Origin: Amoebophrya sp. A120 | Taxonomy: Eukaryota; Protista; Dinoflagellata | Reading direction: 5' to 3' | DNA: 64,000 nucleotides | Assembly: GCA_905178155.1 (NCBI GenBank) | Contig: CAJINV010000007.1 | Span: forward strand, 3,490,265-3,554,264 | Shown: positions 21,136 to 63,612 of the stretch, piece after piece | How the letters are laid out: every line of letters begins with the position of its first letter | Position numbering within the stretch: position 1 is the first letter of the stretch | Translations under genes and position numbers: made by a program | The notes under the pieces: generated by a model | What the model saw: only the letters and a program-made list of their open reading frames with translations | Databases searched by the model: none | Told to the model about the DNA's origin: nothing

Positions 21136-22602
21136 ATGACACCAAGCAGTTTCGCTTCAAGCTTTCTCTTCGTGGACTCACCTACCTCAACGATAACTAC
21201 TCCGTCGGTATTGCTGCGCTCTACGGCAAATGCGGACGATGATTTTGCTGAGAAGTATCGATCAACACGACTACTGTTCCCTGGGAACATGTCGGCAAAA
21301 CGAAGACGAAGGCGACCCACGGAATCTCCGCGTCATGGTAAAAGTAGCAACAAAGCCAGCACTAGCGCACGAGCCTCGGCGTTTTTGTGCAGCGGAGAAG
21401 AAGATCAATCTCGAATTATATCGACTACAAGAACAGCAACAGCACGGAAGCTGTTATCCTCGTCGACCCGTCCTTCAAACACTTCCTTCATCACCGTGAA
21501 TTGCAACGGGTTCCGCAATCACACTCCTCTTGCGCAAGCCCTGTACAATTCCCAACCGCATTGCCGCATCGGCGACGTGCCGCCGACTTCACAGCAGATC
21601 GTCTTGGTTGCGAAAGACGTGGACAACCTGGAGGATAACGGGGATGGGTTGGGCCCGCAACCGAAAACGCATTTGTTAGTGTCCCACGTCCCACCGTTCG
21701 ATCTGACCGACCCGGTGGGGACGGTGTCCGTGCCGAAGGCCCACGACACGGAGGTTTCTTCCTCCGACATGAAGGCGCAACTCATGGCGACGTATTGTGA
21801 GGAAAAATCCCCCCTCCCCATACCAAACCGGGACACTTCTGAAAATTTGTGATGCAGATTTGAAACCACAAATCGTCGCTGTATTGCATGAAGGCAAGTC
21901 TACAGGCTCCGCCACATTCTACAGGCGGTTTGTCATGCTGTTGCTCCTACAGCGTAGAGGTCTGCCATGCTAAGCGCCTAGGCCAAAACTTGTCTACTCA
22001 GGCCTGATACGGGCCTGCAGTCCTCGCCGGCAAGACAAATCTGATTTGTGGCCTCAAATACAGCATCACAAATTTCGTTTTCGATATGGGGAGGGGGGAT
22101 TTTTCCTTTCGATACGACGATGAAATTCACCAGCAACATGATGAAGAACCTGGTCAACATCATGCCGGGAGACCCGAGCGAGAAGGAACTGCTTTGGAAC
22201 GAGACGAAGCACATGAACAACCAGATGAAGCGGAAAACCCACATGGACTACTTGACTTCCATCCCCTGGCGGTCGGTCCAGCCGAGTCGCGAGGAATTGC
22301 TGGCGGGAGTTCGGGGGATCGAAGACGAGTACCCGCACCGGCTGGTGTTTTCCGCCTACGCGCTGGACCGGTCGTTCCACGACGAGATCAAGGCGAGATT
22401 GGTGAAAAATTGGACGTGGACATCGTTGCACAACTTGATCCGCAAACACGTCTTGGAACGCGCGGACACCACGGCGATCGTCTTGCGGCAGAGGCCGGCG
22501 GACATTGACGCGAAAGTGTACGACTACCGCAACCCGGATTCCAGTGCGGTGCTGATGCAAAGCTACAAAGACGCGTTCAGCTACAGCAAGAAGATCGGAT
22601 GA
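21136..22602 (+). CDS. Hypothetical protein, two exons split by a TIR introner
   Basis: Exons 21136-21792 and 22120-22602 join in frame (LMAT|MKFTSNM) after removing 21793-22119. Confidence 0.7.
21793..22114. mobile_element. Introner, family C (322 bp, TSD CGACG)
   Basis: TATTGTGAGGAAAAATCCCCCCTCCCCATA ... TATGGGGAGGGGGGATTTTTCCTTTCGATA. CGACG at 21788-21792 and 22115-22119. Homologous to 56689-57005. Confidence 0.9.
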
Positions 22603-25825: not shown

Positions 25826-28800
25826 ATGATGGATTTTTTCCGGCGTAAAGCCGGTGGCTCCTCCCGGTCTCAAAGCCCCGCTCCGCGGCCCGGCCAACAA
25901 CCGCCCATTAACTACGGACCACCGAATGCGACGAGCTATTCCTCTAGTCAGCCGCCCCCGCCGGGAAGTTACTCCTCTTCGCAGCCACCACCCGGCGCTT
26001 ACGGTGGGCCGCCCCAGCCTGGCGGTGCTCCACCTCCGATGGGAGGCCCACCTCCTGGAGGCCCACACGGTCCGCCTCCGGGTGGACCGATGGGCAGCGG
26101 CATGATGAACAATTCTGCTCCTCCACCTGCAACCTCCTCGTGGGGGTCCTTACCACCCGCGCACCAAGGGCCACCCGGTGGTGGACTACCACCTGGTCAG
26201 CAGGAGCAAGGAATGATGTCACAATCAGCTCCGCCAATGAACCAGAACGACTACTACTCCGCAGGAGGTTACCAACAGGAACCGATGCATCAGCAGCCAA
26301 GTAGACCTCCCCCGACACAACACGGAGGACCGGGCGGGACGCATCTCGGTAGTATGAGTAACAACAACAATTCTGTGAACAATGTGGGCAGCTCGCTGCC
26401 GCCGAACGCCGCCCCGATGGCGAGCTTCGCGAATTTCGCACCGGGGGACTTTGAGGTAGACGTCGAGCAGCAGCAACATCCACAAGCAGCGAGAGGCGTT
26501 CCGGTTCCCGCAAGACAGGACCAGAGCATGACAGGCGGGAACGGAGGCACTGGTGGGCCACCAGTGCCGGGTGGGGCGTTTTACGACGATAGGCCGTCCT
26601 CTCAGCTCGGTGGTGTTGACCAAAACAGGTCTCGACCGAGTGGCCCTCCACCCCGTCGGGACAATGACGTTTTGTCGTCAAACACGAATGAAGAAGGAGG
26701 AATGGTATAATTATTTTTTTGGTTTTGGCACTGTATGACATTGACACCACAAAGACTTTGATAAATTGTCGCTCATGGTCTATCTGTACAAAATCTTCCT
26801 GAAGAACATTTATGAATTGCCGAAATATTTTATTAAAATCAGGTCCCCACCGAAACCGAAGTTGACCGCATCATCTCTATGCTTCCAGAGTCCGAACTGG
26901 ACGGTGTCACACTGCTTTCTTCCATCGAGCAGGCAGTCCTGAACTCCCTCGAGCAGGGCAACTACGACCGAGTTGAGAAACTTTCCGCAATGTCCCACCG
27001 ACTCTCCAATGCCATGAAGGAAGCGGCGAGCGGAAACCCGGTGTCGCAGCAAAACCGCACCGCCGCAAACGCAGCGGGGTTCAGTTTGCACGAAAACTCG
27101 GCGTCGCAGGACCAGATGGACAACGTGAGTTTTGGGTTTCCGGACCTAGGAGGCGATATGAGCCGTGGTGGCAGTGGACCCGGCCCGGCATCTTCCTCCT
27201 CGCGTGGCGGGAGTAAGTCGAAAGATAACGCGAATCTTCAAAATGCAGGACCAGGAGACGATCGCAACATGGATTTCGGCGACGAGCTCGGCAACATCGG
27301 TTTTCCCGATGTGGTTTCTGATCAGCCACCATCCGACCGCGAGAGAAGGAACAAGGATAGAACCTCCTCGAGTGTTAAACCGGGGAAATCACCGAAAAAG
27401 AAAAAGAAGAAAAAAGCGAGTTTCGAAGATCAGGACAATAACGTGGGTGATACAACTTTTGAGCAAAGCCAAAACCCAACCGTGACCGGGTTTCCAACTG
27501 CTTTTGAAGATGTGCAAGGTCCTGGGATGACTAAATCGGGACCAAGTAAATCCTCCAAATCTACTACTTCCCAACAAGAGGCTGTTGCTCAGAAGTCGAG
27601 CAGCAAAGAGTTCCCCACGACTTTCTTTGACATGACCAGCGATGCCGGGACTATCGAGCCACTGAATCTCAACAACACGGATGAAGAGCGCGCGGACGCG
27701 AGCGGCTCGAAGGACGGGGGGAGCGGGGATAAGACCTTGCAGCCCATTGACGAAGAAGAAGCGGTCGTTTTTGAGTTTCCGACCCAGCACCACAGGAACA
27801 ATCATCCGACTGATGGCCGCCCCTCTTCGAAGGAACAGGGGCCCAATATCGGAGATCTGATCGACCAGATGATGGACGGCATCCTCACACGGGACAGCAC
27901 AGCGACCACTGCATCAACAAGAACAGCAGGCGGTCCTCAGGACAAGACCTCCGAGGGGGGGCGAAGCACTACCGCAACGATAGCGCCATTGAACGCGGAA
28001 GCAGCTGCAATATCCGATCCGACAGGAGCCACTCTCGCAGTTCCACAGACTCCTTCTTTTGGTCTACCGCTGCAGGCAGGAACCGCACTCAGTGATGTTG
28101 CCCAAGCAACTGTGCCTGCGACACCTAGCGCGGCCGGTGTAGTTCCGACATCTGGCGGTCTTCTCGGCGGTACTGCAGGAACAATACAACCGCCCTTGCA
28201 CGCGCAGGAGCAACCACTGTCGCAGTTCCACCTACAGCAGATACAGATGCAGCAAGCGGCCCAGCAGCAGCAACAGCAGCTTTACCCGCCCCCTGCTGCA
28301 TCTGGCTCCGGTAGTCCAGCACCTTCTGTCATGCAACTCCCGCCCGCGTTGCTTCAACACCAAAGCCAAGATCTCCTCGCCCAACCTCCAGAGCCCTCCA
28401 CCCCCTCGGTCAATTCCTTCGATCTCCGGTGGCACCCGGACGCGCTGCTCCATTGGGAACGGAAGGAAAAGCAGTACAAGCAGAAAATTGAGGAGCAAGC
28501 CAAACAGATCACCAACGAGCAGCACAACGTGAAGGCGATTTTGTCGCAGTTGCAATTTTCCTCGTCCCAAATGACGAAAACAAAAGAGAAGTACGAACAG
28601 ACGATCAAGCTCTGGCAGCAGCAATTCTACGACTTGGCCGAAAAGTTCGCAGAGTTGCAGCAGAACCACGCGACCTTGCAGAAGGAATTTAAAGAAAACG
28701 AGGAAAAAGCGACCGTTCGGGAGAAGACCCTGTCGGATACGAGGGAGCGGTTGTTTTCTGAAAAGGCGAAAGTGGCAAACATGATGGACGAAGTGGAAGA

Positions 28801-31800
28801 AAAGCGGTTGCTCTACGACACATTGCAGAGGTATCCACAGAAAAAAACCCATCCACATCCAATTTGTCATGCAAAAAACGTATCAAGTCATGTGTTTGTC
28901 ATGCAAAAAATGAATGTGGATGGGTGTTTTTTCCTGCATAAGAGGAGGCTGTTGGATTCGAAAAAATCCCACAAGTCTGCGGAACAGGAACTGAGAGAAC
29001 TGCACCATATTCTGGACACGACGAAAACAGCCGTCGTTGGGGGGAAGGTATTTTGAAATTTGTACTTCATCTTCGCACTCAATATTTTGTATCGGTTCAA
29101 CATCGCTTTTGGTTTTATTGACGTGAGTGACCTAGTAACCGAATGAAGCGCTCGCCCTGTTCATTTCAAAAAACTCTATGTATAAATATGTACGAAGCGA
29201 CTACTTAAAATAAGGTCACCGTCGAGCGCGGCACTTCTTCCTCTTCCACCTACCGCGACGTGTGCTCGCCTGTCATGGCGGATCGTGACGATGAGCTGGC
29301 GGCCGCGGAGAAGGGGCCGGCAAACGCAAACAAAACTGTGAAAGCTTTGATATGGCGTTCTCAACTGTTACATTCTCAAGTGTTACATGGATTTGTCATG
29401 CAAGAATGGGAGAAGTGAAAGGGGGGAGGTTGCATCTGTAGCATTACAAATTCCGAACAGATTTGGGCGCTGTTTAGCCATTCGCACATTTGTCATGCGA
29501 AGCAGCTTGATCGTGTGGATCTTGATGATCATTTTGCATGACAAATCATGTAACAGTTGAGAATGTAACGTTTGAGAACGCCATACTTGAAGCGGTTACC
29601 ACTGCCGGAGAAATTCTGTCCTGTGATTCTGGATGCGAAGGGGATGGACGCTGGTGGTACTTGGTTCTTTGGTGATGTCAATGGGATGTTGCTGTGTGTA
29701 TTATGGTATGCGCTTTTGTTTTCTCGGGCTGGTAAAAATATTGTCAAGTTCATTGTTTATGGCTCACTAGTACCTCGGCGTCCCGTAATATCCTCCCATT
29801 GCCTTTGCCATAGCCATGGTCGGACGATGAATGCTCCGAAAAAAAACAGGTATTTCAGTCCCGCCCCACGACCCAGCTGCACCACAACACTCTTCCTCGT
29901 CTACCGCAGCGTCATCCGAAGCACCACAAGTCGTGGTCTCCCCAGAGCTAACCGCGACCCTGACGGAGCACTACAGGAATTTGGCAGTCCACGGCACCGG
30001 GCCGGTTTTTGAAGATCCAAACATTCTCGTTTCCGTCGCGAGTATCGAGCCGGATAACATCATATCAACGGGAAACAATTTTCCGTTCCCGTACACGTAC
30101 GGTGCAAATGCTGTTATTTCTGCATGACAAACTTTTCCTTGAATTCTCTTCCGCATGACAAGTCGCTTCTTCTAAGTTCTTGGTGAAATTTTTGATGCAT
30201 TCTGCACATGTGCGGGAAATTTGTATTGCATACATCACCTTCCACGTGCTGAACAAGGGCAACATGCCGGCGGATGTGCTGGATTTCGAGCTCGCGCTAG
30301 TCGGGAGTAGTGGAAACAGGGTTTTGCTGGCGCAGAAAGAGGCCGAGGAGAAGAGCGCGAGCAGACAATACGGGTCCTTGTCCCCTTCCAAGCGTTCCCG
30401 GTCGCCGGCGAGAATTACAAATAGTTCGAATCGGCCAGGGGATCAAATGGATAATTCCTACGAGGATTTGTCTGGATTCTTGAAGCACAGCAAGCCGGTG
30501 AAAGGCGTTTTGATGACCGCGAAGACGGAGCCCAAGGAGATACAAGCAGCCAGCACATCAAAATCCCCGTCTTCGAGTCGGAATCTCGATACAACAAAAC
30601 CCTTCTGGTCCGGCAGACAGTCCCAGTCGGTTCCGAAAACGGTGCAACGAACCGGGCTCGGGCAGCTACCAGGCGAGCGGCACCGGGCGACAGCGTTGCG
30701 CTTGCCCAGCATTTGGCCGAAAAACGCGCAAACCTGCGAAGTGCGGTTGATGAACTATAATCAGCAAGGAATAGACGTGTCAGAAGGCGGGAATTCACAT
30801 GCAGCAGGACAAGCAACGGAGCAGGCCGGGGGTAAAAACAGCAGCTCCTCCTCGTCCAGCACTTCCCACCCGACAACTTCAGCAGCCAACAACAACACCC
30901 TGAACCTCCTCGATTCGATGCTGTACGAGGACGCGCCAATTCTAGAACTCTGGTACAGTTCCGGTTCCTCGGAAAACCTGACAAACTACTTCGCGATCCG
31001 TTTCCCCCTCCACGCCATTGTCCGGAAGTGCAATCTATGCATTGCAAAAGTACTATCGCACTAGAGTGGAAATGGAATGATAAATTTGCGCAAGTAGAAG
31101 AAATAAAGTCGAATTTGTCACGCTGATTAAACTGGATAAAAGATTATATTGTCATGCATGGCTGCATAATTGCTCCTTCTGCAAGTGCGATAGTACTTTT
31201 GCAGATGATACAATCTGCGACCGTTGTCTCTGATAAACCACGCCGCCTTCTTCGAGCGTTGGATGCAGAAGGAATTCCTGGAGAACGAAGTTTGTTTCGT
31301 CTCCAGGGCGAGGAAGGTGTTCTCGAAAGACAAAAATGGAATGCTGCATTTTCTTAAATGCTGTCAATTGGGGGACAGGTTACGGGCGTTGCCGCACTTG
31401 CAGTCGGACGGGGAAGTGGTTGCGACGAACAAGCCAACCTCGAGCGAAAGTAGCAGAAGTCAGTTGCCACGAGCTACTGCTGCCTCCTACAAGCTTCTCC
31501 TAGCCGCCGTCGTCCGACGGGCGACCGTCTCTCCGGAGGTTTTAGTGCAGGCAGAGATCGTGGACCAGAATGTGTTTGTCACGGTTCGGTCCACGCAAAT
31601 TGCGGTGTCACGAGCAATGAGCGCAGCTTTGGTGGACGTTTTAGCGGATGAAGGTTCAGTCAACGCCGGCGTTGCGGTCGCGGGGCAGGAAATGGTAATC
31701 GCGACCGAGAAGCAAAATGCCGCTGCAGCAACGTCTAGTTCTCCGAATCGCAGAAGTAAAGCAAACCAGCACAACATCCAACAAGGCCCCATTCCGGGCC

Positions 31801-32153
31801 GGCAGCCACCGCCTTCCGCGACCGAGATCAAGGAGAAGGAAGAAGCGGAGCAACTTCTGAAGAAGAAAGAGACTTATCTGTTTGACGCAGAGAAGTTGGA
31901 AGACGCTTTTGCACTCGAACCCACACCCACACTGGAGAAGTTGACGAAGGTCAGCGAGGCGAATCATGGGCAGGAACCGCTGCCGGCTTTCTACAACGAA
32001 AATGGCGAGTTGGAAAATAACGGGAAAAGCTTAGAGGAAATCCGGTCGAAGTTCACGCGGACCCGGTGCGAAACGCTTTTGGAGCAGATTAAGAGGCGGC
32101 AGCGGAGCTACGTGATCGACAAACTCACAGGGACCGGGGGGATGCAGTTTTGA
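25826..32153 (+). CDS. Large 8-exon protein: Pro/Gly-rich N-terminus, coiled coil, and a C-terminal alpha-adaptin appendage (ear)-like domain
   Basis: Exons 25826-26704, 26843-28831, 28946-29047, 29215-29350, 29591-29656, 29850-30062, 30238-31035 and 31216-32153 all join in phase. HYRNLAVHGTGPVFEDPNILV, ITFHVLNKG and RFPL..LRPLSLINHAAFFERW resemble AP-2 alpha ear motifs (NGVLFEN, FYGNK, KLP..FFQP..FFQRW). Confidence 0.65.
28832..28940. mobile_element. Introner, family A (109 bp, TSD AGAGG)
   Basis: TATCCACAGAAAAAAACCCATCCACAT with a degenerate right TIR. AGAGG at 28827-28831 and 28941-28945. Can be placed as GT-AG (28831-28944). The 114 nt are in frame. Confidence 0.9.
29351..29585. mobile_element. 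Introner, family F (235 bp, about 52-bp TIR, TSD TTTGA/CTTGA)
   Basis: TATGGCGTTCTCAACTGTTACATTCTCAAG... pairs with ...GTTGAGAATGTAACGTTTGAGAACGCCATA. Removal gives VKAL|KRLPL. Confidence 0.9.
30063..30232. mobile_element. Introner with degenerate TIR (170 bp, TSD CATCA)
   Basis: TAT...ATA ends with CATCA at 30058-30062 and 30233-30237. Removal gives EPDNI|TFHVLNK. Confidence 0.75.
31036..31210. mobile_element. Introner, family E (175 bp, TSD CAATC)
   Basis: Perfect 20-bp inverted-repeat core TGCAAAAGTACTATCGCACT. Removal gives RKCN|LRPLSL. Confidence 0.9.
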
Positions 32154-32917: not shown

Positions 32918-35698
32918 ATGAGGTTACGTATGGCTGCGGACGACGGAACCCGCTGTGTCCGAAGTGAGCTCGTGTGGCTCCGAGTATGGTTCTTCTCGTC
33001 GTGCTCCCTGCTGCAGCTTCTAGCAAATTTCGGCGTTTTTAGCCACGCCATCCCTTTCCGCGATTTCTACTGGATCGAAAGTCACGACGCCGCTACGGGG
33101 TATCTGTACGCAAAGACATCGTCTTCAAGCATGGCCACAACGACGCTCTACTCGAACCAGAACAACATGCTGGGGACGTCGTCGTCGACGAGAGAAAACC
33201 CGATCAACAACTGGGTGATAACCCAGACCGGTCCGCTCTCTCACCAGCTCGACTGCGGCGCCCGTGGCTTCGACCTGCGACCAATGTGCTTCTTCCATGA
33301 AGACGAACAGTTCGAACCAACAACGGACCACGCAGGCGGAGACAAGTCGGAAAACATGGACGGCGCTCCTGCTCTTGACAAGAAGCTTGCTGGTGTGCGG
33401 CAAACCGATCCCGAGATTTACTTCCACCACGGGTTGATTCCTGTGAAAGTGGTAAAATTTGAGGACGTCCTGAACGAAGTTTCTGCCTGGGTGAAAAACG
33501 ACACAGAAACGACGGGCAATCAAGACCCGGTCATTCTCGACATGTCCCATTTCGTCAGCCGTACTGCCTCGACGAGGAGCGACGTGCAGGCCAGCTCAGT
33601 CGCTGGAGCTGATCACCTCGCGATGATTGCCGCCGGGAAACAAGAGGATGCAGGACGGGACACGTTGCGCCGTCAGAAAATAATCCCGGGAACGAAACGC
33701 GAACACGATCAGCGCTGCTACGAGGCGGTAAAGGCGCGGGCTGTTGAACTTGGATACCCTTGGTTTGATTCATGTAATTCCAGCATGGTAAACGTAAACG
33801 CGAACTGGCCTGGCCGGCCCGACGCAAAGCCAAAGCAATCCCGCTCAGGAAATGGTGGAGGTGTGAAGAGTCTCGCAGACACAGACGTGACAGATGTTGT
33901 CAAGACGTATGGGAGAATCCTGCTACTTCACGGAGCGGCGTGCGTAGATGGGAATTACGACCCTGGGGTGAAGTGTGAAGATTGGAATTTGCAGGACGTA
34001 CATGCTGAAAATCAGCTAGACAGCACAAGAGAAAAACTGGATGACGCGCAGCGAAAAACGTTCTCGCTGGGATACGATTGCCATACTGACAAGTCGGTGC
34101 CTGAGAGCAGGGTGCGAGTGGACAAAAAACATAGTTCTATCGCAAGAAGAGCCCCCACCGGCCGGGCGTGGGACACGTTCTTTTCTTACTGGGATAAAAC
34201 TGAAAAGAACGTCGATCATAAAGGTCGTTATTCAAGCGACACAGGTGGAGCAGCACGACACCCTCCTGCAAGGTCTGGGTTTCGCATGCTGCAAGCGCAT
34301 TGGCAATACGATGCGTCGAGTATCTCCTTTGCTGAGGCAAGATTTGGCTTGGATGCCTCCGTCTTGTTTGACAATGAAAAGTCAGGCATGAACTTTATCG
34401 CTGCAGACAGAGTACAGAAGAACGCCGGGGCGAGGAATAAAGCTTGGAATATCGTCGAGGTAAATGATATGGAAGCGTCAGGTTTGAAATCGTCAAAGTT
34501 GAAATACGGTAGGGAAAACTGTCCCCACTACCCCGGTTTTCCCCAAAGACAATTTTTTTTTTTCGATCCAATTGTAAGCAGGGCGGGCCCTTCGCAAGCG
34601 ACCTGCGCCGCGAATGGCCAGACCGAAGCCCGCTCCCCCAGGTGTGTTGCTGGACTCAAAGACACTGCACGCCTTGCCCGGCTTTTTGGGGCGCAAGCAG
34701 CTCGGGGCCCGCGAGGCAGCGCCCTGGGCAAGGCGCCCATGCCAGACCCGCCCCCCGGCCACCTAAGGCTGAACGCAATGCCCCTTGCCGCGGACCTGTC
34801 TTCTCCGCTTGAGGCTGGCCGGCACCGTTTCCCTGAGTGCATGTTCGGACACGCTGGCGAGAAAAAAAACGTATGCTGGGGATTTCGGCCCTAAGCAGCT
34901 ATCTACGCACTTTCGGCCTCCAAAACGAGCACCAGAAACCTCCCGAAAAGGTACGCATGCACGACCCCCAGGGAAACGGTGAGGCCGGAGCCTCAGAAGT
35001 TGGGCGCGGCCAGTGTGGCGGGGCCGCGTTGCAGTAGCCCACGCGCGGATGGGGCCGAAGTAGCTACACACATCCACAAAGCTTGCTGCCCCGTCAGCTC
35101 ATGCGCCGACTTTTGCGCGCCGCTATCCCGCTTGCTCCATTGCATACGTAACAACCTCAGAAAGTATCCGTGAAGAAGATCCACTAGCGGACACTATCCG
35201 GGCGGGCTGTGCGGCCGGTGGCCGTGTTGTTGCGTCAGTTCATAAAAAAATTTTTGATTTGGGGAAAACCGGGGTAGTGGGGACAGTTTTCTCTAACGTA
35301 TGAAATAATTTGTAATGCATAAAATGCATGACCCGAGGCGCGTGTGTTGCAGAGCAGGCAAGTGAGGCCGATTGTAAGCCTGTTTGGGGTTACAGCTCGA
35401 GCTGCTAAAGTAGCATGAGAAAATCGCTCTTCTTTGCCTAAACAGCACGACAAACTGGATTTAAGGGCCGCCAAGATTTGTCATGCGCCACTCGGAAACT
35501 GGGCTTCAGTTGGCATCCATTTTATGCATCACAAATTATTTCAACTTTGAGGATTTCAATCCTGACGTTTCCATAAATGACGTTTGCCTGGATAAAGGAC
35601 AACTTGCAAAGGTTGTGAGGACGTTGAATCAGGACGCTGAGGATCGTGAAAGAACGAACGAGAGCTCGTCAATCGACATGGAAGAAGTTCACATGTAG
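32918..35698 (+). CDS. PI-PLC X-domain-containing protein, probably secreted
   Basis: Motifs SHDAATGY, TQ..LSHQLDCGARGFDLRP, FHHG and VILDMSH, with a hydrophobic N-terminus. Exons 32918-34467 and 35581-35698 give WNIVEVND|VCLDKGQLAKVVRTLN. Confidence 0.85.
34468..35575. mobile_element. Introner, family G (307 bp core, TSD AATGA), carrying a nested element
   Basis: TATGGAAGCGTCAGGTTTGAAATC ... GATTTCAATCCTGACGTTTCCATA. AATGA at 34463-34467 and 35576-35580. Confidence 0.88.
34505..35300. mobile_element. Non-autonomous TIR DNA transposon (796 bp, TSD TGAAA)
   Basis: 43-bp TIR TACG(G/T)TAG(G/A)GAAAACTGTCCCCACTACCCCGGTTTTCCCCAAA with 2 mismatches. TGAAA at 34500-34504 and 35301-35305. GC-rich interior. 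Confidence 0.92.
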
Positions 35699-49004: not shown

Positions 49005-50159
49005 ATGTCTCCGGCGCTGATTAACCGCAGCAAAACACGGATCAGGAGCCAGGGAGTTGAAAGCGCCACGTTTCTGAAAACAACTCCGGACAACAATGCG
49101 GATGACAAACCTGATGGTTACCAGAAGAACTACACCAACGCCGAGCCGTGTCGTAATCACCTGTACTACCAAGTTAACATGATTCACAACTACTACAAAA
49201 AGAACGAGCAGAACAGACCCCAACATCGATTCGAGTACAGGGGCAATTATCCCTATAATCGTTACGACAACCGCGACCGCCCGGTCCCTCCTGCGCCGCG
49301 GGAGCAGACCAAAGCGGAGAATGCAGTTCTACCTGGGTGCCAGTTTCTCTTCAAAACAGAGGAGGAGCGGGATTTGTTTGTCAAAGATGCGAAGACTATG
49401 CAGAAGATTCTCTGCGACATGTGCACGACGGGGAAATTTAAGCGTGTGGTGTTGGAGGTGATGGGCAACAGTGACGGCTTTCGCGAAAAGGAGCAATTCA
49501 CTGCGGTGTACGAGAACAAGTTGATGCAGGTCATCCACGCGCATTACGCCGAGCGCGCCCACAACCAGTACAATCGCCAGACAGACCACACAAATTGGAA
49601 AAAGATCGCGGAAGAGTTCGTTCTAGTTCTCGACGACGCGGGCGGCTGGGGCATGGAAATTTTGGACGGGAAGACCCGCGGGGAAGCGCCGAACCACCCG
49701 GTGAAAGCAATGGACTGCGGGTTTATACATTGCAAATATGTCTGAGTCTGGAAGAGTGCGAATTTGTGATGCGAACTGGTCTACATCATGACAAAATCTG
49801 TCATGCGTGGCTAGCGAAAGGCCACAGCTCTTGTTACCGAAAGAGGGGATGTGTCATGCCGATTAGGCATTGGGGTACCTGGTGCTCCAAGTCTGTGATG
49901 CTAGAGCTTGCATGCCAGACGATCTAGGTCAGGCAAAAACTACATGACAAACCTTGCATCGTCCTTCCAGACCCAGACATATTTGCATTTGATAGGGTTG
50001 GTAATGGAGCAAGTGTTTAAGAGTCGCATGCACCTGGACGAGAGCGAGGGGGGGAGCTTCTCTGACCCGGTGACCTTCCGTTTGATCGGGAAAATTGAGG
50101 AGAGAGATAAGGAGCGGGAGGCGGCGCAGGGCGCGGCACAGCAGGCAAAGAACAAGTAA
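49005..50159 (+). CDS. Hypothetical protein, at least two exons
   Basis: 49005-49723 joins 50000-50159 (MDCG|LVMEQVF). The 5' end may extend upstream. Confidence 0.7.
49724..49994. mobile_element. Introner, family B (271 bp, TSD GGGTT)
   Basis: TATACATTGCAAATATGTCTGAGTCTGGAA ... TTCCAGACCCAGACATATTTGCATTTGATA. Confidence 0.9.
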
Positions 50160-52896: not shown

Positions 52897-53146
52897 ATGA
52901 ATTATGTAGTCGTACGATCACGATTAATACGGGAACCGCACCATGGGTCTTTTTTTTCGCACTGATCTTCCCCTTCTGTTTCTGAGATGTTACTCTTACT
53001 CCTGTCTTTAAAAGGCTTCTCGAGGTATTTTTCGTAAGCATTTTTCGGATTGCAGGCGCTGAATGAGCAAGGTAGAGCACCCAGAATAGAGAGTCCTCGT
53101 CAAGTATTTTCTCCGCCTGCTCTCGCTTCTCGTCCTCGCACCCAAA

Positions 53147-54420
53147 ATGCGGGGACTACGTCGCTGCCCTAACGTTCTTGCGCTGTCACCTCTCGTCGCG
53201 GCTTGCTTCGCTACAACTTCACGACTTTTCTCACTTTTCGCTGTGCCACTGTCTGCCCAATTATCTGGGACACGACCTGTAGGCAGCGTAGTACAACAAG
53301 AACCTCCGCCAGCAATGAACACTGCGCAAGAACTGAGCAACGGCCTCGCCAACTGGAAGCCCGGCGCGGGGAGTTGGCAGGAACTGGGTGACCTCTTCAC
53401 GAACAGCGGCACGGGCATTGGCATTGTTCTCGGCCTGGGCCCAGATGCGAATTTCGCGAGGCAATTTTTGCACATGTGGACCAACGGGGTGTTGTACCTG
53501 TGCGACCCGTTTATCCACATCTTCAACGGCTACGACGATCCGGAATATAACGTGGACGACAAGACGCACCAGATCAATTTCGAAAACATCCGCGTGACCC
53601 TGATGCAAACCCCTACCATCCAAGGCCGATACTCGATGGTCCGGGAGTTCAGCTTCAGCTTCTACCGCCTTTGGCTGAAGCAAGACCCGCAGTACGACTT
53701 CGGGCAAATACCGCCGAGGTTCATTTTCGTGGACAACAATCCGAGCAAAGACGCGGTCTTGCGGGACATGCACGACTGGTGGGAGTTACTTCTACCGGGC
53801 GGCGTCATGGCGGGCGCCAGGCCCGAGCATCCGGGAGTGTTTCACGCGGTTGAGAGCTTTGCGAAGTTGCACAATCTGGAACCCTATCAACTGCAAAAGT
53901 GTCTGGGTCTGGAAACTTGTAATGCTGCGTTGGGAATAGTAAATGCTCTGCAATGCACAGTTAAGCATGATGAGAAATATCTGCGGTTTTTTGTGTTGCG
54001 TTTTTCGCATGACTTGCATGACAGGCAAAAGGGTCTCTTCTTGGACACGCTTCACAAACTTTTTGGTCATGCCAGGCAAGCATGACAAATCTTCCAGACC
54101 CAGACATTTTTGCATTTGATAAACCCCTGCTGGTCACGGACGAGCAGACCTCGATCGGGTTCGGCTGGTTTCTATCCACAGAAAAAAACCCATCCACATC
54201 CATTTTTTGCATGACAAACACATGACTTGATACGTGTTTTGCATGACAAATTGGATGTGGATGGGTTTTTTTCTGTGGATAGTTTCTCATCAAACCGAAC
54301 GACGACGCGACAAACGAAGAATACATGCGGAAGGCGGAGGAGATGAAGCGCGTCGCCGACGAAGCGCGAGAAAAGGAGGCAAGGAAAATGCAAGAAATAA
54401 CCTCGAAAGTTGAGTTGTGA
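53147..54420 (+). CDS. Class I SAM-dependent methyltransferase-like protein (Methyltransf_24 type), secretory pathway
   Basis: GIVLGLG, LYLCDPF and FIFVD..AVLRDMHDWWELLLPGGVMAG. Exons 53147-53884, 54127-54172 and 54287-54420. Hydrophobic N-terminus; the spliced C-terminus is KVEL*. Confidence 0.8.
53885..54121. mobile_element. Introner, family B (237 bp, TSD AACCC)
   Basis: 30-bp TIR with 2 mismatches. Removal gives HNLEP|LLVTDE. Confidence 0.92.
54173..54281. mobile_element. Introner, family A (109 bp, TSD GTTTC), inverted relative to the copy at 28832
   Basis: Perfect 30-bp TIR TATCCACAGAAAAAAACCCATCCACATCCA. Removal gives GWF|LIKPN. Confidence 0.95.
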
Positions 54421-55262: not shown

Positions 55263-58200
55263 ATGCGTCCCCCTCCAGGCGGTGGAGCGATTCATTCGAA
55301 CAACCCCAACATTTCCACCAAACAGAGGGGGCCAGCACCTCCGGGAGGAGCACCCCCCCTATCGTCAGAGCAGGAGGAAATGAGATATGCGCAGCAGCAG
55401 CAGCAGCGAGCTTCACCTTCGAACAACCAGATGGTTCTTTTGTCCAATCCACAGCCAGCCTCCGTTACGTCGTCCACTTCCGGTGGCGGGGCGGGGACAA
55501 GTGGTTCCAGGCCTGGTGCAACGAGCTCCAAAGAGTCGTCCAGTGGAGGGAGCAGCAGTGGGCAGGAGAAAGACCCCGTGAGGTTTGGGACGGACGCGAC
55601 GAAAAGGGAAGATTTCGATCAGGAGTTCGAGCAATATGTGTTATCGGAAGACTATCCAAGAAGAAAAAAATGCTATGAGTAACTTTGTCATGATGCGCAA
55701 CTACATGCAAGATGATTGTGTACTGTGTCATACTGGTGCTGTGGATTTTAGGGCCCAGTATTCATGTGCCTTTTCGTGTGCTATTTGCGCATGACAGGTT
55801 TTTGCTGTCATGCCACACAGATCTGCAATGCTGCTCCGCAAAAAAAGTTACGCGTTGTACTCCTGCACTTTTTTCTGTTGGATAAAGACGCACGGCGCCG
55901 GAAAAAGAAGTGGACCTACGCAAAAGCATTTGGGGGCGCCGCGGTGGCCGCGAGTTCAGGGGCGCTATTTGGAATCCCGCTTGCGGCAATGGTACTAAAC
56001 ACGTACAATTTTTTTTTTTCCACGCACGAGATTTTTTTTTCCACGCATGAGAGGTGGAAAGATATCGAGAAGCACGCCCATGCGTCATGCATTATGATGA
56101 CCTTGACCACACACAGTAAAGAATTATCTTTGACGGAACATGAAAAAACAGGTCCTCATGGGCGCTGCGGGTGCGGGCGCTGGGATGTTCGGAATGCGGC
56201 AGATGAATGGGAAGGACGGGAAGCAGCGCGGCCAGAAATCCATAGAGGACGAAGCCGGCCCGGGCGGGCGGTCGCCGGGGCGCAGAAGGTACGCGACGCA
56301 CAAACGATTTTTGCAAACCGGGCGCCCGCCACCCAGTCTGAAGCGGGTCCGGTTTCTGATCAAGTGGGCGTCGATCAAGATTGACGAACTGGAAGAGGGA
56401 GACCACCCGGGCGTGATCCAGTATGAGACTGCACAATTCCCCCTCCCCCTCATTTGTAATGCAAAGTACCAAATCCATATCCACCCTTTGCCTCTTGGCA
56501 CGTTTTGCATGGCAAGTTCTGGAAGCCCAAATAGCACTACACTCCTGTGCAAATTTATCATGCAAAACCTGCATTCTTGCTGACACTTATAGTGCCGCTC
56601 ATGCTATACAAATAAGGGGGAGGGGGAGTTGTGCGCTGTCATATCCAGCTGATGGATGACATTATCTCGGAATTCAGCTTGGTGGTGGTATCAAGAAGAA
56701 AAATCCCGCCTCCGCATATCAAAACGGAAATCTGTGCTGCAGATTTGTGTCCACAAATCAGCTCTGTCATGCTAGAAGGAAAAAGATGCGGACTGTAGTG
56801 CTGGGTGGCGTGCGAAAGCCTTGCATCTTCAGCATGACAGGAGGCAGCTGGAAGTGGGGCGCAGCGTGACAAATTGCCTGCGAACGAGGCCACAACTGCG
56901 GGTCTTGGCCTTTTAGCAATACAAGACGACTTGTGTGCTCAAATACAACATCACAAGTTGAAGCTTCGTTTTCGATATGGGGAGGGGGGATGTTTCCTAG
57001 CGATAGGTGGAGGCCGCAAAAACCTCACTGAACGCTGAAACGGAACGGCAGAAGCTGCATGCATTCGTGCGCTTTTTGGAGAAGATAAAAACCTACAAAA
57101 AGTACGCGCATGCGAATCAGGTATAATATTGCGTATGCTACATAGAATTAGAATGAAGCTTTTCATCTTCTGCAAGATGAAATGAAAATGATGTACTCTT
57201 GTTACCTTATCGTTCGTCCGTTGCTGCAGTCTTACTTCCGCAGTCGTTGTCGTTGTGGCATCGCGGCTTTTGCGCATGACACATCAAACCTACACCATTA
57301 GGTCTGGCTCAAATCCTGGGAGGAGTCAAACGATGAAGAGCTGAACGAGATTGGTGACGTGAACAGCCGAATGGTGCTTCCCTCCGATGCCTGGCTCCGG
57401 CTGCAATTTGTCTTCCCCACCATCATTAACATTGCGAAAATCCTCTCCGCGCACGAGAAGGTGCACAAGACCGCGCACCTGGGCTGCACCCCTATGCATA
57501 GCAAAAGTATCGTACTTGTACTACATGCAGTACAGTACGACACATCTGGTGGTCTCGTGGCTATTTCAGCAATACAAATCATATTTTTCCTTGTGGTTCT
57601 CGTTCTTGTGGAAAAAAATTTTATTGTATTGCTATTTCATTCATCTACCACTACTAGTACGATGCTTTTGCAATGCATAACCGCGGTCGGGGGGCAAATC
57701 GTGAACGCGATCGATCACTTGGCGGATTGGTGCTACTCTGTGCTGTCGATGAGGCGAGTGAAGCGGTTTCTGGCGGAATATGAGGAGATGGCCGCGGCGG
57801 CATTAGAGGACAACGCGAAGCAGCAGGCTCTGTTGGACGGTAAGATGCAGGTGGAGGAGGATAGTGATTCGACAGAAAAGAAAAACGCAAAATCTGACGG
57901 AACGCTGCTGAAAGCCGCGTCGCCAGCTACCGTCGCAAAGGTCGAGAAGTCGTATAAGGGGATTTCGACGAAAAATGATTTAGGAGGAGGGATTGCAGAT
58001 GATGATCCGTCTACAGGTTTCAAGCCGGACCCGAGAATAGCAGGGGTGAAAACTACCACACAGACACAAGGAATATACAACTACAGAGAACAGCCACCGC
58101 CACCGCCAGGTGCACCAAATAACACTCCAAGTAACCCAGCGACCCCCTCCGCTGCATCATCTTCCCGCAGTAATAAAGCGACTTCAAAAAGCCCGGCGAA

Positions 58201-61200
58201 AAAAACGAAAGCGAAATCAGGGACGTCTCTCTCCCCCGAAAAACAACAGATGCAGCGTGGGAGTATCCAGGCGAGACAGCATAACAGCTTCCACTCGCTT
58301 CCGGACGACGCAGATGGGGATCAGGATGACAATGACGCAGAGGAGGATGATATGAGAGTGCACAATGGTCCATCCCCGCCTCCTCACTTGAAGCGGGGGG
58401 GGCATGAGCAGCAACACAAACAACGGCAGAAATGTAGTGACTTTCCCATGACAAAACTGCAACACCAGGGTCTGTTGTACTGCTATTCGAGGTTGTTCTA
58501 CTAAAGTTTACCATGCAGAGAGAGTCTATATAGTGGCGGCAGAAGCTTATTTTTTGGAAAATTTAAAAAAACATTGGGTGTCATAGATACTGGCTGCGGA
58601 GAGCACCACCACCGCCACGTGTGTCGAGCGTGCTCGGCTGCGGCGCCTGTGCAGCCGCGGTTGGAATTGATCGGAGAAAAAGAAGGTCGGGCGCCTGGTT
58701 GACATAAATGATAGGGCTGGGGGGCTGAACCTTACGAAGTGCACTGCACTCGCGGGCCCTGGCTCTAGCTCGATGCCCCGCCGAGGCCTGCGCCGATAGT
58801 AGTGGGGCCGCCGGCAAGCGGGCCCTGGTGGCATGCTTGCCAGTGGCTTCGCGTGTGTGTTTTGGCAGCGCGCCGGGCAGCAGGATGGGCCGGGGAGATG
58901 TGGCGAGGAGAAGCATTTCCGTGCCAGGCTTGTGAAAAGGCCTCGCTTAATGGCCGCGGGAAAATAACAACGCGCCCCGGGCTGCTAGGAGGGTGCGCTT
59001 TTTGCCTCCCGCAGCCCTTTCTGAAGCGTCGCCCGGCGGCTCTTGCTGCTTTTCTACCAGCTCTGGTGGCTGGCCCTTGGAGGGGCGATCGCTGGCGCGC
59101 CGGGGTTTCAGAGGGGCCGCGAAAGGGTCACCGCACCGGCTGGAGAACATGAAAAAAGCCCCGGAAACGTGCGGCGGCCAAAAACCGCGCCCGTTTTGAA
59201 ACCTGGGAGCAAGAGCGCCTGCCGCCGGAGTACCACAACCAAACTCCGGGCTGGAGGGGCGGAAACTCTTGGTCGCTGCGGCTGTGTCACTCCCGCCCCG
59301 GCCCCTGGAGGGGGCGTGGCAAGCGATTGGCCCGACCGAATGTCCGCCGCCCAGCGCACCCCCAAAGCGCGGGGCCTTTGCCTCTTTTGGAGGGGCATGA
59401 AACGGCACAAAGCGGACTGCCCCTCCTGCGTGCGTTATGCCCCGCAAGGGCAGTGGGGGTTCGCAGAGTAAGCCAGGCCAGAAGGGCTTCATTGATCGCC
59501 AAAAGCGCCGCCAGCCCCGTCCCTTTCCTTTTTGCCGCGCCATACTCGGATCGGGACAAAGCACGTGGCCGAACACTACCCGCCCGACCAGTCCTACCGA
59601 CTACGCCCAGTCGGGCACCTTCAACGAGGGCCAAGGACAGGGCGACGCAGATGCGCACCCACGGCCAAGGAAGGGAGCGCGCGACCGCAAAGAAACGGCC
59701 GCCCACCCCTTCTGCGTGTTATCTCCGAGGCGCGTCCCTAGCCCGCCCGCCCGCGGAAACCCGGGGAAGCGGCAGGGCCCCGGTCGCACCAAACGGGCGA
59801 AAACCCCTCCCCCACCCGAGCATGCGCCGGCGGCGAGAGGAGGGGGAGCAACCTGAGCAGAACTTGTTGGGCCCCCTCTTCCGACAGCCCGGAAGCTGGC
59901 CGCCTTAAATGGGCAAGGGTTTCGTGGAACGGCGCGCGCCGAGCACCCCGAACCCGGTTGGCACGCTTGTCGCCTCGACGGAGCTTCGGTTGGGAGGCTC
60001 CCCAACGGAAATGTGAGCCGGGCAACCGGAAACACCTGCCGGGGTAGGCTAAAGAGGCACCCCCCCAAAGTGGGCCCGTAGCATGCGGGGTCGCTCTTGC
60101 TTAGGGCCACTTTTGGAGACCCTATCCGGGCACCCCCGTCCGCGGGGCCCGGGGGGGCCCCGAAGTGGAAAACCAGTTGCGGCAAGGGCGGTCACGCAGC
60201 ACGCGCCCCACATGCGCCCCGGAGCGGCCGCGGGGCTGCGCAGCTGCCCGGGAGCTTGGCTCCGATTGCCCCGGCAAGCAAGAGCGCCGGCGGTCCTGGC
60301 GCCCCAAGCGCGTTGGCTTCTGGTTTTGGCGCCATGCGCCCCTCGGTCTGGCCGAAGGAAAACAGCGACAACAAGCACGGCCCACAGCATGCCGGTAGTG
60401 TTTTCCCCTGGAAATTGGTCCGCGTCCGCCCTGCATTGCCAGCCGGCCGGCTTCGCAATGTTGGCAGGGCGGCGCGCCGAAAGAGTAAGGCGGCCGTGGC
60501 GGTCCTGGTGTTTTTGGCATCCTCTAAAAGGGCCCCGGGCGCCGCGCACCTCTGCGCCCTACCTACTGCGCAAGCGCTGTGGATTTCGGCTCGGGCCAGG
60601 AAAGCAGTGGGGCGGCGGAGCCAGGCCTAATCCTTTCCGCCGTATATTTTTCAGGAAATCGGCCCAAGGCACGGCGGTCGGCCGAGGGGGCTTTTCAGGT
60701 TGTAGCCCGCCCGGGCTGGGGCCACTAGAGCACGGCGCGCCGCGGTCGGGCCCCCCTTACGCGGGCCGTCTGATCAGTTCCCCACCTGCAAAAAGGGGGG
60801 CCCGGGTGCCCCGCTGTGTTGCCCAGCGCGGCGGCGCTTGTACTCTGGCCTCCAAACGTGCTGGCAGTGTCGGCGGGCGGTTGTTTTCCGCGAAATTGGT
60901 ATCCGAAATGCCGCCGGGTAATTCTTGCAAGGAATCCCGCGACTTGGCGGAAGCGCGCTAGGGGGCGGCTTGGGAGGTGTAACCAAACCGCAGGCGCCTT
61001 GGCTGGGATGGAGCCACGTCTCCGCCCGCTTTGCAGGAATGGGGCTGCTCGAAAAGAGCGAGTGTCGCGCGGTTGGTGAATTGTGGTCTGCCGAGCAGGG
61101 GTCGTGGGCGGCGGCCGAGGGGTGTTGCGGCTCCTCGCCGGGCAATCAGGGATGGGCATTGCGGCCGATGATGCCGCCTGACCGGGGCGCAGGAGCATGG

Positions 61201-63612
61201 CCCCGGGGCATCTGGTGCGGCGCAAGGCGCTCGCCCATTCCACATCACGCCGTGCCTTTGGGTTGGCCAGATTCGGCCGCGCCTGCCGGGCCTCCGCCTG
61301 CCCCGACCAAATTCGGAGCGGCGCAGACCTGGCGGGATTGGCCCGTCTAGGGGTCAACGACGGGCCCGGCTCCCTGCCCACGATGCCCGCTCTAGCGTGC
61401 GCGGACGTTAAAGTTGACGTGACCTTTCGCGCCTTCTGCTAGGGGTTCTGCGGTGGTGTGATGTGTTTGACTTTGCGGCAGCACGGCAGAGCAAACTGGG
61501 TAAGCGTTGCGCTGGCGTGGGTCTTACGCCGTCCTGAGTCCAGAAGCGTGATGATTCGGCTGGGCTGCGGGGCCCACGATAAAGCCACCCAATATTTTTT
61601 TTAATTTTCGCAAAAATAAGCTTCTGCCGCCGCTATAGTCTAAAGCTACTTACGACTTGGAGTTGGATTTGTTTTGTTGCATCACAAAGGGCAGGGGAAG
61701 TTGTGCACTCCTGTCATAGATGATTACTTTCCACCGGAGGGCGCCGAGGACGAGTTTAGTGATGGGAGCGATTGTTTCCATGACGCGGAGTCCGATAACG
61801 ACATCGATCCAGAGATATCCATGCACAGCGACACCAGGTAGTACTTAAAGTTTTTCTTGTATGCAGCATCAAATCGTTGTACTGATGGCATGTGTTTGTT
61901 TTTGTGCAGAATGAGACCTCGGTCGCAGATGATTCTAGTAGCTTCGCACGACATAAATTTGTAAGCTCGCCGCGAGCCTACACTGTTGCCAAAAACTTTC
62001 AGATCAGAAGTTCCCTCGGTTCACCAGCCCTTTCGCAACAGCTGGCACGCGTTGTCAAATGGCCAAAACCCCTCGCACCACTCCGACTGCTTCCCCTATG
62101 TGGAGCCCGACAATCCAGAAAAGAAAAAGAACTGCTGGAGCCGGTCCGTCACGGCGTGGCAGGTCCGCGGGAAAAACTATCTGAAAGACAAGAAAAAAAT
62201 CGCCTCGCCCCCGCCCTTCGCGGTAGGCCTCGCGGCCGACATCTGTGACTGCCCCACGGCATTAGCGGTGTACGCTAGGCATCCAGAGGGATTTGTTCAG
62301 GTATAGATTGATGAAACGACTTTTTCAGAACAAGAATTATGATGGATTTATTCGTAAAAATTTTGCGATCTGGATGAAGATATTGATATGATATGGACCA
62401 TGAGTAGAACATCTTCACATTGTTCTTCGTGGTACGCCGCGAAATCGGAAAGAATAATCCCAAAATCAACAGCGTTGTCGAAAGGGCGGAGAGGGTCGGT
62501 TTCTGTTCGTGCTGAACTTTCGCTTTACCCCGAAGCATATCCTTTGCAAAAGTATCGTACTCGTACAAATGCCCGTCTTGCATGACAGATCTACTTGCAT
62601 ACCTGCATCTGCATGACAAGTTGCGCTTTTTCTTCTGCAGAAATTTGTCATACTCCTTCTACTAGTGCGATAGTTTTGTAATGCATAAAGCACATGGTCC
62701 TTGTGTGGGCCCTGGACCACAAGGAGTACCAAGACCCGATGTTCCAGAACTTTCTCTCCCTGCCGCCGGAAGAGAAAAGCAAATATTCTGAGTAAAAACG
62801 TCCCCACCCCAGAGTTGTCATGCAAATGTGCATGCCAAAAGCATCTCATGCGGAGCCCCGTGAGAAGCTCTTTCTAGGCGAGTTTTGGAGTTTGTGATGC
62901 TACAATCAGCATGATATGCTAGATTTATGATGCCCTGCTGAAATAGCCAAACAGGATTACACTTTGAGGGCAGACTTGTGATGCGAAACAAACAAAACTG
63001 GTTGATCTGTCTAGCAGGTTTGCCATCTTGATACCTTTCTGGGGACGTTTTTCCTCGCAATAGCAAACGCTTCAAATTCATCCCGTGCCTCGTCGAAGGC
63101 CCGTGGCTGGTCCGCCAGGCGGTGGGGACTAAACCGGCACTGCTGGGCAACAAAATTAAGTCCGATTGGTACCAGGGGGACGACTTTATAGAAATGTCCG
63201 TCGACATCTTCTCCTCCTCGTACGCCTCGCAAAAGTATCGCACTTCTAGTGCAAAACTGCATCACAATTTTTTTCAAGAACAAGGATGCAAGTTGTCATG
63301 CTATGTCAGGTGCTTAGAAAGAAAAATTAAGTTAGGGTTGTCATGCATGACTGGAATTATTTTTACCTGTGCGATACTTCTTTTGCAGAGGATACCTCGG
63401 CAGCCAGGGCGATTTTGGGGGTGACCAGCGGTGCGGCGCGGAAACTGATTCTGGAATTCGGTTTGTTGCTGGAAGGGCAGTCTGTGGACGAACTACCGGA
63501 GAGGATGATGACCGGATTTCGCATCATTTTCCCGGACCTAGACAAGGCGAGACTGATGTCTCCGGAGGAGGGCATGCCGCTGCTCAAAGGAGGCGGGGCG
63601 GCGCAAGGATAG
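55263..63612 (+). CDS. EDR2_C (DUF1336) domain protein with an N-terminal hydrophobic segment and an FFAT-like motif, 14 exons
   Basis: Motifs NCWS..WQVRGKNYLKDKKKIAS, RFKFIPCLVEGPWLVRQAVGTKPALLG, IEMSVDIFSSSAARAI and LEGQSVDELPE. Exons 55263-55652, 55890-55991, 56152-56421, 56649-56688, 57011-57120, 57302-57492, 57685-58350, 61724-61837, 61910-61960, 62003-62300, 62473-62537, 62693-62783, 63068-63220 and 63400-63612. The 61910-62002 region is tentative. Confidence 0.85.
55653..55884. mobile_element. Introner, family-A-related (232 bp, TSD AAGAC)
   Basis: TATCCAAGAAGAAAAAAATGC ... GCACTTTTTTCTGTTGGATA. Removal gives LSED|ARRRK. Confidence 0.85.
56422..56643. mobile_element. Introner, family D (222 bp, TSD TCCAG)
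   Basis: About 37-bp TIR TATGAGACTGCACAATTCCCCCTCCCCCTCATTTGTA. Removal gives GVIQ|LMDD. Confidence 0.9.
56689..57005. mobile_element. Introner, family C (317 bp, TSD GGTGG)
   Basis: Homologous to 21793-22114. Can be placed as GT-AG (56685-57006). Confidence 0.88.
57493..57679. mobile_element. Introner, family E (187 bp, TSD ACCCC/ACCGC), in frame and stop-free
   Basis: 28-bp TIR TATGCATAGCAAAAGTATCGTACTTGTA with 3 mismatches. Confidence 0.85.
58351..61718. mobile_element. Introner, family D (254 bp core, TSD GATGA), carrying a nested 3.1-kb element
   Basis: TATGAGAGTGCACAA ... TTGTGCACTCCTGTCATA. GATGA at 58346-58350 and 61719-61723. Removal gives AEEDD|YFPP. Confidence 0.85.
58529..61637. 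mobile_element. 3109-bp TIR DNA transposon (TSD GTCTA) with a GC-rich, apparently decayed interior
   Basis: About 52-bp TIR TATAG(T/C)GGCGGCAGAAGCTTATTTTT..GAAAATT..ATTGGGTG. GTCTA at 58524-58528 and 61638-61642. Confidence 0.92.
62538..62687. mobile_element. Introner, family E (150 bp, TSD AAGCA)
   Basis: Removal gives FTPK|HMVLVW inside the EDR2_C domain. Confidence 0.88.
62784..63062. mobile_element. Introner, family C2 (279 bp, TSD GCAAA)
   Basis: TATTCTGAGTAAAAACGTCCCCA ... TGGGGACGTTTTTCCTCGCAATA. Removal gives EKSK|RFKFIP. Confidence 0.92.
63221..63394. mobile_element. Introner, family E (174 bp, TSD CCTCG)
   Basis: TACGCCTCGCAAAAGTATCGCAC ... GTGCGATACTTCTTTTGCAGAGGATA. Removal gives DIFSSS|AARAIL. 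Confidence 0.9.

Follow-up and report, generated by a model that had tools for sequence, protein, structure and literature searches.

The 64,000-nucleotide (nt) stretch analysed here (the window: Amoebophrya sp. A120, contig CAJINV010000007.1, positions 3,490,265 to 3,554,264) carries several genes that are interrupted by short inserts with transposon-like ends. As the first-pass annotation had recognized, these are non-canonical introners of a kind already known in Amoebophrya, namely the introner elements of A120 described by Farhat et al. 2021, which resemble miniature inverted-repeat transposable elements (MITEs). The elements are already published, but how they are cut out is not, and what we add is a proposed fixed splice rule whose constraint falls on the 5' end only. 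The inserts are very probably removed from RNA and not from DNA. Beyond this, we lean towards a reading in which A120 introners, in both orientations, would be spliced at N|TAY...RTA|NNNN (bars mark the element ends) by a relaxed U2-type spliceosome, in preference to a separate route that cuts hairpins. The rule as proposed rests on gene models together with a comparative signal.

A scan of the window for TAY...RTA ends, a 5-bp direct repeat with at most one mismatch and terminal inverted repeats (TIRs) returned 17 elements at a TIR score of at least 11, and none in each of six shuffles. Among exact repeats a length of 5 bp is the commonest, with 14 TIR-bearing elements against four at 4 bp and none at 6-7 bp, while shuffles average 0.46; this repeat is the target-site duplication (TSD). 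Adding three elements with weak TIRs (30063, 58351 and 63221), four older ones exposed through an annotated protein, and 37650-37965 brings the window total to 25, of which 23 break coding sequence and two are nested in other elements; about 21 TAT...ATA elements with 5-bp TSDs in coding sequence had been claimed earlier. The sizes then given, 109-322 bp, hold after two nested inserts are subtracted, but fail for 47936 (662 bp) and for the inserts themselves (796 and 3109 bp). The ends read TAT at 44 of 48, TAC at three and TGT at one, and A occupies positions 11-14 in 16-21 of 24 elements per end. Six multi-copy TIR families and six singletons are present, where at least seven families had been proposed. 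Being short, with TIRs, a constant TSD and no coding capacity, the elements have the properties of MITEs. No Rfam family was found in the window, and one TIR that was searched for had no copy in viral contigs. All 25 elements lie beyond position 21000; in 1-21000 nothing passes the scans, and the long open frames there are element-free. The elements are as follows.

21793..22114, +: 322 bp, exact TSD, family of 56689; removal joins open frames of 225 and 160 codons
28832..28940, +: 109 bp; GT-AG readable at the -1/+4 cut; inverted relative of 54173; 114 nt removed
29351..29585, +: 235 bp; TSD with one silent mismatch; 240 nt removed
30063..30232, +: 170 bp; exact TSD, decayed TIR; 175 nt removed
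31036..31210, +: 175 bp; 180 nt removed
34468..35575, +: outer element, 307 bp once the insert nested in it is subtracted
34505..35300, strand not given: nested 796-bp TAC...GTA element, 5-bp TSD, GC-rich interior; in the left TIR of 34468
37650..37965, +: 316 bp, ends in ATG; TSD with one mismatch; family of 62784; removal gives an open join
46225..46374, +: 150 bp; TSD mismatch permits cut registers 4-5; 155 nt removed
46439..46758, +: old; start in the family register, 46442, reads CAC; annotated junction 3 nt upstream; 325 nt removed
47601..47843, +: old, 243 bp, decayed TIR; registers 2-5; 248 nt removed
47936..48597, +: old, 662 bp, possible unresolved insert; registers 3-4; 667 nt removed
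48660..48946, +: old, 287 bp; end pairing at shuffle level; register 4 only; 292 nt removed
49724..49994, +: 271 bp; 276 nt removed
53885..54121, +: 237 bp, in a methyltransferase-like gene; removal of element + 5 nt fits two homologs best, by a small margin
54173..54281, +: 109 bp, copy of 28832 in inverted orientation; in-frame GT...AG pairs absent within 30 nt of either end
55653..55884, +: 232 bp; 237 nt removed
56422..56643, +: 222 bp; GT at -1; AG one base beyond the predicted cut, unused in the annotated protein; 227 nt removed
56689..57005, +: 317 bp; alternative GT-AG reading 56685-57006; 322 nt removed
57493..57679, +: 187 bp; TSD mismatch permits registers 4-5; 192 nt removed
58351..61718, +: outer element, 254 bp after subtraction of the insert that it carries; 3373 nt removed
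58529..61637, strand not given: nested 3109 bp; 52-bp TIRs 90% complementary; 5-bp TSD; 67% GC interior
62538..62687, +: 150 bp, within EDR2_C; 155 nt removed
62784..63062, +: 279 bp, within EDR2_C; 284 nt removed
63221..63394, +: 174 bp, TAC start, ATA end, within EDR2_C; 179 nt removed

Protein searches with exon fragments recovered three annotated A120 proteins that match the window exons at 100% identity. Their gene models place the introns as follows.

25826..32150, +: gene model P0003; four element introns and three GT-AG introns
40237..50156, +: gene model P0004; six element introns and one 5572-nt GT-AG intron
55263..63609, +: CAD7956236.1 (P0001), 900 amino acids, C-terminal EDR2_C; eight element introns and four GT-AG introns

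At 17 of the 18 annotated element junctions in these proteins, exactly the element plus 5 nt is lost, including the 3373-nt nested case at 58351; the same genes also carry eight ordinary GT-AG introns. Both the frame-restoring removal of element plus 5 nt and the coexistence with GT-AG introns had been anticipated from the letters of the DNA. The annotated models were built on transcript alignments (PMC7789003), with the longest open frame kept, so out-of-frame isoforms would go unseen. For three of the old elements the ends were assigned after the junction was known, with TAT and ATA found at the expected spacing. A further view comes from the AT5.2 ortholog (P0002) of the EDR2_C gene, 65% identical over aligned columns, to which removal of element plus 5 nt gives the best fit at six of eight junctions; of the other two, each in a stretch rich in indels, 57493 has its best score at +3 and 58351 at -3. 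The two elements of the methyltransferase-like gene are likewise best removed with 5 nt when compared with two homologs, by small margins. Among the conserved domains that were said to be interrupted, EDR2_C is confirmed and holds three elements; the methyltransferase match is weak (E=2e-4, below the cut-off) and ends before element 53885, and the PI-PLC X label found neither a Pfam nor a PDB match. A search of metagenome contigs for relatives of the EDR2_C gene gave 597 pattern matches, none of which was confirmed.

Where the two TSD copies are identical they mask the junction, and it is the diverged copies that reveal its register. Counting the register as the number of bases kept from the upstream copy, five such elements permit registers 4 or 5 (46225), 2 to 5 (47601), 3 or 4 (47936), 4 (48660), and 4 or 5 (57493); a sixth, 29351, is uninformative owing to its silent mismatch. 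Register 4 alone fits all five, and would make the intron begin 1 nt ahead of TAT and end 4 nt beyond ATA. If cuts were random and independent, agreement on register 4 would have a probability of p=0.004, and agreement on any common register p=0.072. This register (-1/+4) puts TA at intron positions +2/+3, matching the host donors, which read GTA in eight of eight cases and GTAY in seven of eight. All nine predominant non-canonical RNA-seq classes of A120 also have T at +2 (PMC7789003, Table S4). At 46439-46758, where the 5' TA has been lost to CAC, the annotated junction is shifted by 3 nt in a manner compatible with use of a GT at 46438. On these gene-model placements, we consider a cut at -1/+4 probable.

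To what extent are the two ends of an element equivalent? At least 131 loci with one end motif were found in a metagenome assembly of a close relative (contigs JACKZZ01...), and the counts in this paragraph refer to the matches listed from it. A partner end accompanies 133 matches; the 5-bp repeat is exact in 77 of these and carries one mismatch in 23, and repeats of 6 or more are absent. The copies were given a coding strand with a codon model trained on window genes, which called 290 of 295 held-out 120-nt pieces correctly at the margin used, leaving 150 oriented copies of 224 for the test. One family is oriented 41:33 both ways, and where the frames of the two flanks were called separately, a 5-nt gap fits 50 of 55 same-strand cases (eight more were strand-discordant). 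The 5' TA is intact in all 150 oriented copies, whereas the 3' end has eight changes, four of which break the pair (p=0.008). Restricting the comparison to 80 copies without the search pattern gives 0 changes at the 5' end and 6 at the 3' end (p=0.03), and other filters give 0 against 9 and 0 against 7. Read on one strand, the 3' end has both A>G and T>C changes while the 5' end has none, which argues that strand-biased mutation is not the cause. Position +4 varies at the 5' end (TAG, TAA, TAC), as it does in host donors. G at +1 occurs in 43 of 150 copies, an AG end in 13 and both in five, which is the chance level, and the oriented copies give no sign of G+1/AG insertion-site selection. The same families recur at these loci with 84-90% identity to the window elements, one of them clustering at 145-156 bp.

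Since a fixed cut position of this kind would need only TA at the front end, a spliceosome of relaxed specificity is the likely agent. A U2-type machine would read U at +2 and A at +3 and would ignore both G+1 and the AG. The end of the element would at the same time act as a GTA donor of the host type that lacks its G, and the symmetry of the element would provide one in either orientation. In the window, 28832 and 54173 share 97% identity over 100 nt yet lie in opposite orientations, both in plus-strand genes. The inner stem (TIR positions 8-25) would join the ends, and the 3' cut would be set by its distance from that stem. U1 small nuclear RNA went undetected in strains A25 and A120, while 83 of 89 spliceosomal proteins were found (PMC7789003); the GT-AG strain Kv does have U1 (PMC12005148). 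A precedent for a spliceosome acting on transposon introns without GT-AG is available in Fritillaria (PMC11282704, PMC13326754).

The hairpin formed by the TIRs deserves separate consideration. The ends are paired in 18 of 22 folded elements, and the four without end pairing are old. The end duplexes of these four decayed hairpins reach -13 to -19 kcal/mol, two of them at shuffle level, and all four elements are nevertheless removed exactly. The stem likely helps, but with decayed hairpins removed and with terminal pairs on the 3' side able to break, neither the outer three pairs nor a strong stem is required. TIR positions 4-7 pair poorly (44-113 of 150, among the matches listed) between the well-paired positions 1-3 and 8-24. 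This poor pairing, seen in the window and at the related loci even between near-identical copies, would form an internal loop adjoining the cut.

Several observations weigh against a relaxed spliceosome or against the register on which it depends. The register derives from protein-level placements at five elements, and some shared register would be expected by chance at p=0.07. Intron position +5 is A or T in eight of eight host donors but G or C in 20 of 24 elements (p=5e-5). The RNA-seq classes of Table S4 may reflect aligner preference, and eight of the nine also have A at -2, which a -1/+4 cut does not predict. Two attempts to read the register from the relative gave null results: a codon-frequency test (25 of 53 mismatched positions, 47 diverged-TSD copies among the matches listed) and an AT/GC bias test (16 vs 20, in the related-assembly copies among the matches listed). 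A first fourth-order Markov model was too weak for polarizing TSD mismatches. The shift at 46439 is a single case, for which a new G-U stem (pairing probability 0.51) is another possible reading. The 150 oriented copies among the matches listed revealed neither a branch-point signal nor an acceptor signal. Young elements fold into strong end-to-end stems that a spliceosome would need to have opened. Finally, the inner stem contains more G-U than A-C (121 vs 80, p=0.005, among the matches listed), a hint that RNA pairing matters, and one that a hairpin-cutting route predicts too. Nearly all of this excess is supplied by TIR position 21 of the GCAAAAG family, where U-G occurs 40 times and C-A six times in transcript orientation (again among the matches listed), a bias that could arise from selection on an RNA stem or from strand-biased mutation.

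The alternative that survives best is a stem-guided endonuclease that would recognize the TIR stem and a 5' UA, cut at -1 and +4, and hand the ends to an RtcB-type ligase. We regard it as possible but less probable than splicing by a relaxed spliceosome. Such a route would be the precise equivalent of nonconventional splicing in Euglena or of SOS splicing. It would account for G+1 and AG at chance level, for the strong stems of young copies, for the wobble asymmetry at position 21, and for the AG at 56422 that lies one base beyond the cut and goes unused in the annotated protein. It also has known parallels. The Euglena code has the same form and is suggested by its authors to be non-spliceosomal (PMC12501133), and in SOS splicing, inverted repeats are the trigger and RTCB takes part, with AKAP17A and CAAP1 needed as well (PMC12779559). 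Even so, under this route the TA at host donor positions must be a coincidence. Against it, too, terminal pairs are free to break on the 3' side, and elements whose stems have decayed are still lost exactly; SOS splicing, by contrast, depends on inverted repeats and is imprecise. The earlier proposal of a second, hairpin-guided removal route alongside the spliceosome holds for the existence of non-GT-AG introns in several TIR families. As a purely hairpin-guided route it is weakened by the finding that the only invariant letters are a donor-like 5' TA, by the broken 3' pairs and by the removal of decayed hairpins. It stays a live rival because of the fixed-offset stem code of Euglena, which its authors think non-spliceosomal.

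The comparison with Euglena is close in other respects. As in A120, the introns there have a MITE-like origin, free bases at both ends, a stem at fixed offset, a longer 3' tail and slidable repeats (PMC12501133, PMC11282704). The offsets are 3 and 5-6 nt in Euglena and 1 and 4 nt in A120, and the Euglena motif is complementary on both sides, whereas the 3' letters of A120 may break the pair; a circular excised RNA has been reported for Euglena. A120 elements end in N1-TAY...RTA-N4 and not in the euglenid signature N3-CDG...CHG-N5-6, and an end-to-end stem is found in 18 of 22 rather than in all members, two of the other four being at shuffle level. SOS splicing resembles the A120 process in taking TIR elements out of mRNA at non-GU-AG sites (PMC12779559), but it is imprecise and multi-site, produces indels and needs inverted repeats, while removal in A120 is exact in the gene models and survives TIR decay. 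The gene models, exact as they are, display only the in-frame isoform, which limits what they say about multi-site imprecision. The available text of PMC12779559 on SOS splicing does not mention Amoebophrya.

An ordinary spliceosome acting at cryptic GT/GC-AG pairs, or cutting at -1/+1 and leaving one extra codon, is improbable. In-frame GT...AG pairs do lie within 30 nt of the ends in 19 of 22 elements, and with GT donors considered, two of the 22 elements tested can be read exactly as GT-AG introns (28831-28944 and 56685-57006), the same two that had been singled out before. Yet three elements are without any such pair, no residues are gained or lost at 17 of 18 junctions, and AT5.2 fits best at element plus 5 nt in six of eight.

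Precise excision from DNA, with transcripts derived from empty alleles, had been offered as a further branch of the earlier proposal and is more improbable still. The symmetric, transposon-like ends, the exact 5-bp TSDs in 77 of 133 cases (among the matches listed) and an internal motif shared in both orientations would suit a DNA reaction. However, the constraint on the ends follows the direction of transcription, which is not expected of a symmetric DNA reaction. In addition, positions 2-4 of the upstream TSD copy are retained in the transcript in all five informative cases, and the elements are present in the assembly while RNA-seq supports 66,565 introns (PMC7789003). Least credible is the notion that these genes are pseudogenes whose transcripts retain the elements: nothing speaks for it specifically, although two elements, 28832 and 57493, are stop-free in frame, and it is contradicted by transcript-based proteins without the elements, by the 65% identity of the EDR2_C gene to its AT5.2 ortholog and by the one-sided 5' TA constraint.

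It seems appropriate to ask how much of this was already contained in the literature. Farhat et al. 2021 described A120 introners as MITE-like, with inverted repeats composed of TAT, seven variable bases and a run of A, with 3-5 nt direct repeats and with RNA-seq support, and about 65% of RNA-supported A120 introns are non-canonical (PMC7789003, Table S4). The mechanism was left open there, the splice position being described as variable relative to the hairpin and the border as unknown (PMC7789003). The window elements agree in sitting in A120 genes, in TAT-starting repeats with an A run, in direct repeats of this kind and in forming repeated families. They differ in that the TSD is always 5 bp, that the cut seems to fall at one position, -1/+4, and that invariance is confined to the 5' TA. 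A term search of the main text of PMC7789003 found no mention of a shared motif, of nesting or of element orientation. More broadly, the literature covered did not describe, for Amoebophrya, a fixed register, a constraint on one side, exact removal despite hairpin decay, a motif shared between families or nested elements; subscription papers lie outside this coverage, and some of these features may be shown in Fig. 3 and Figs S19-S25 of PMC7789003.

Two other systems are instructive. The introns of Fritillaria borealis are transposon-derived, with TIRs and TSDs, mostly lack GT-AG and are attributed to a modified U2 spliceosome (PMC11282704, PMC13326754), but their preferred ends are AG-AC and AG-AT, U1 is retained and U2AF is duplicated, whereas in A120 positions +1, -2 and -1 are free and U1 is undetected. 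The introners of Polarella and Symbiodinium share TIRs and TSDs and, in some cases, both orientations and a splice site that spans the boundary between TSD and element (bioRxiv 10.1101/2020.10.14.339549). There, G-starting donors and AG acceptors are recruited from the TSD, unlike the A120-type elements, which are without such site selection. The preprint of Roy et al. 2023 (Curr Biol), in the text available, makes no mention of Amoebophrya.

Several further features of the elements and their surroundings were encountered. Elements of unrelated TIR families share an internal motif, TTTGT(C/G/A)ATGC or its reverse, with several occurrences in each. Of 16 short elements in the window, 13 contain one 8-mer form of it, a 62-fold enrichment, and the motif is present in 74 of 75 copies of one family among the matches listed. 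It is absent from both long nested inserts. As a branch point it was rejected, the matching orientation being absent in 36 of 150 copies and otherwise lying 39-288 nt from the 3' cut (among the matches listed). More likely, it is a binding site for a mobilizing protein and would serve transposition. The two long TIR elements (34505-35300 and 58529-61637) are found only inside other elements and have interiors of 63-67% GC with no recognizable gene. They have no similarity to each other or to the related-assembly loci. No transposase match above the Pfam cut-off was obtained from 73 reading frames of the long inserts and nearby GC-rich stretches. A further candidate insert, 47987-48434, with an exact 5-bp repeat and no TIR, was not accepted, because about 20 such pairs arise per shuffled window. 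GC-rich stretches resembling the insert interiors lie at 23150-24100, where no TIR or TSD was found, and, by eye, at 10850-11500.

Among the host GT-AG introns, seven of eight are 138-193 nt long, and their 3' ends are A-rich without a pyrimidine tract. By eye, TGA(A/C) stands about 20-30 nt before the AG in five of them (26705, 29657, 40424, 55992 and 57121) as a candidate branch site. The annotated GT-AG intron of 5572 nt (40424-45995) is filled with a pair of GC-rich tandem arrays and an inverted-repeat element of 1355 bp (41871-43225) that has an internal repeat of 13 bp, and the P0004 model across it may fuse two genes. A tubulin-family gene at 50962-52896 (Pfam E=2e-15) is a single open frame without elements.

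A fixed N|TA...|N4 rule with a constraint on the 5' end only would make the question of removal directly testable. Our most specific proposal, which falls just short of an even call and is made tentatively from these sequence comparisons, is that the A120 spliceosome would work without G+1, without an AG acceptor and without U1, using an N-U-A donor and a 3' cut measured from the stem. If a spliceosome is indeed responsible, the requirement of splicing chemistry for G+1 and AG could be dropped genome-wide. If a nuclease and a ligase are responsible instead, A120 would possess an equivalent of SOS splicing that is both precise and constitutive. In both cases, the rule would put intron annotation right in this lineage. 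Should the relaxed-spliceosome reading prove true, any TAT-ended transposon with a 5-bp TSD would be a scarless intron wherever it inserts, in either orientation and even with kilobases of other sequence nested within it.

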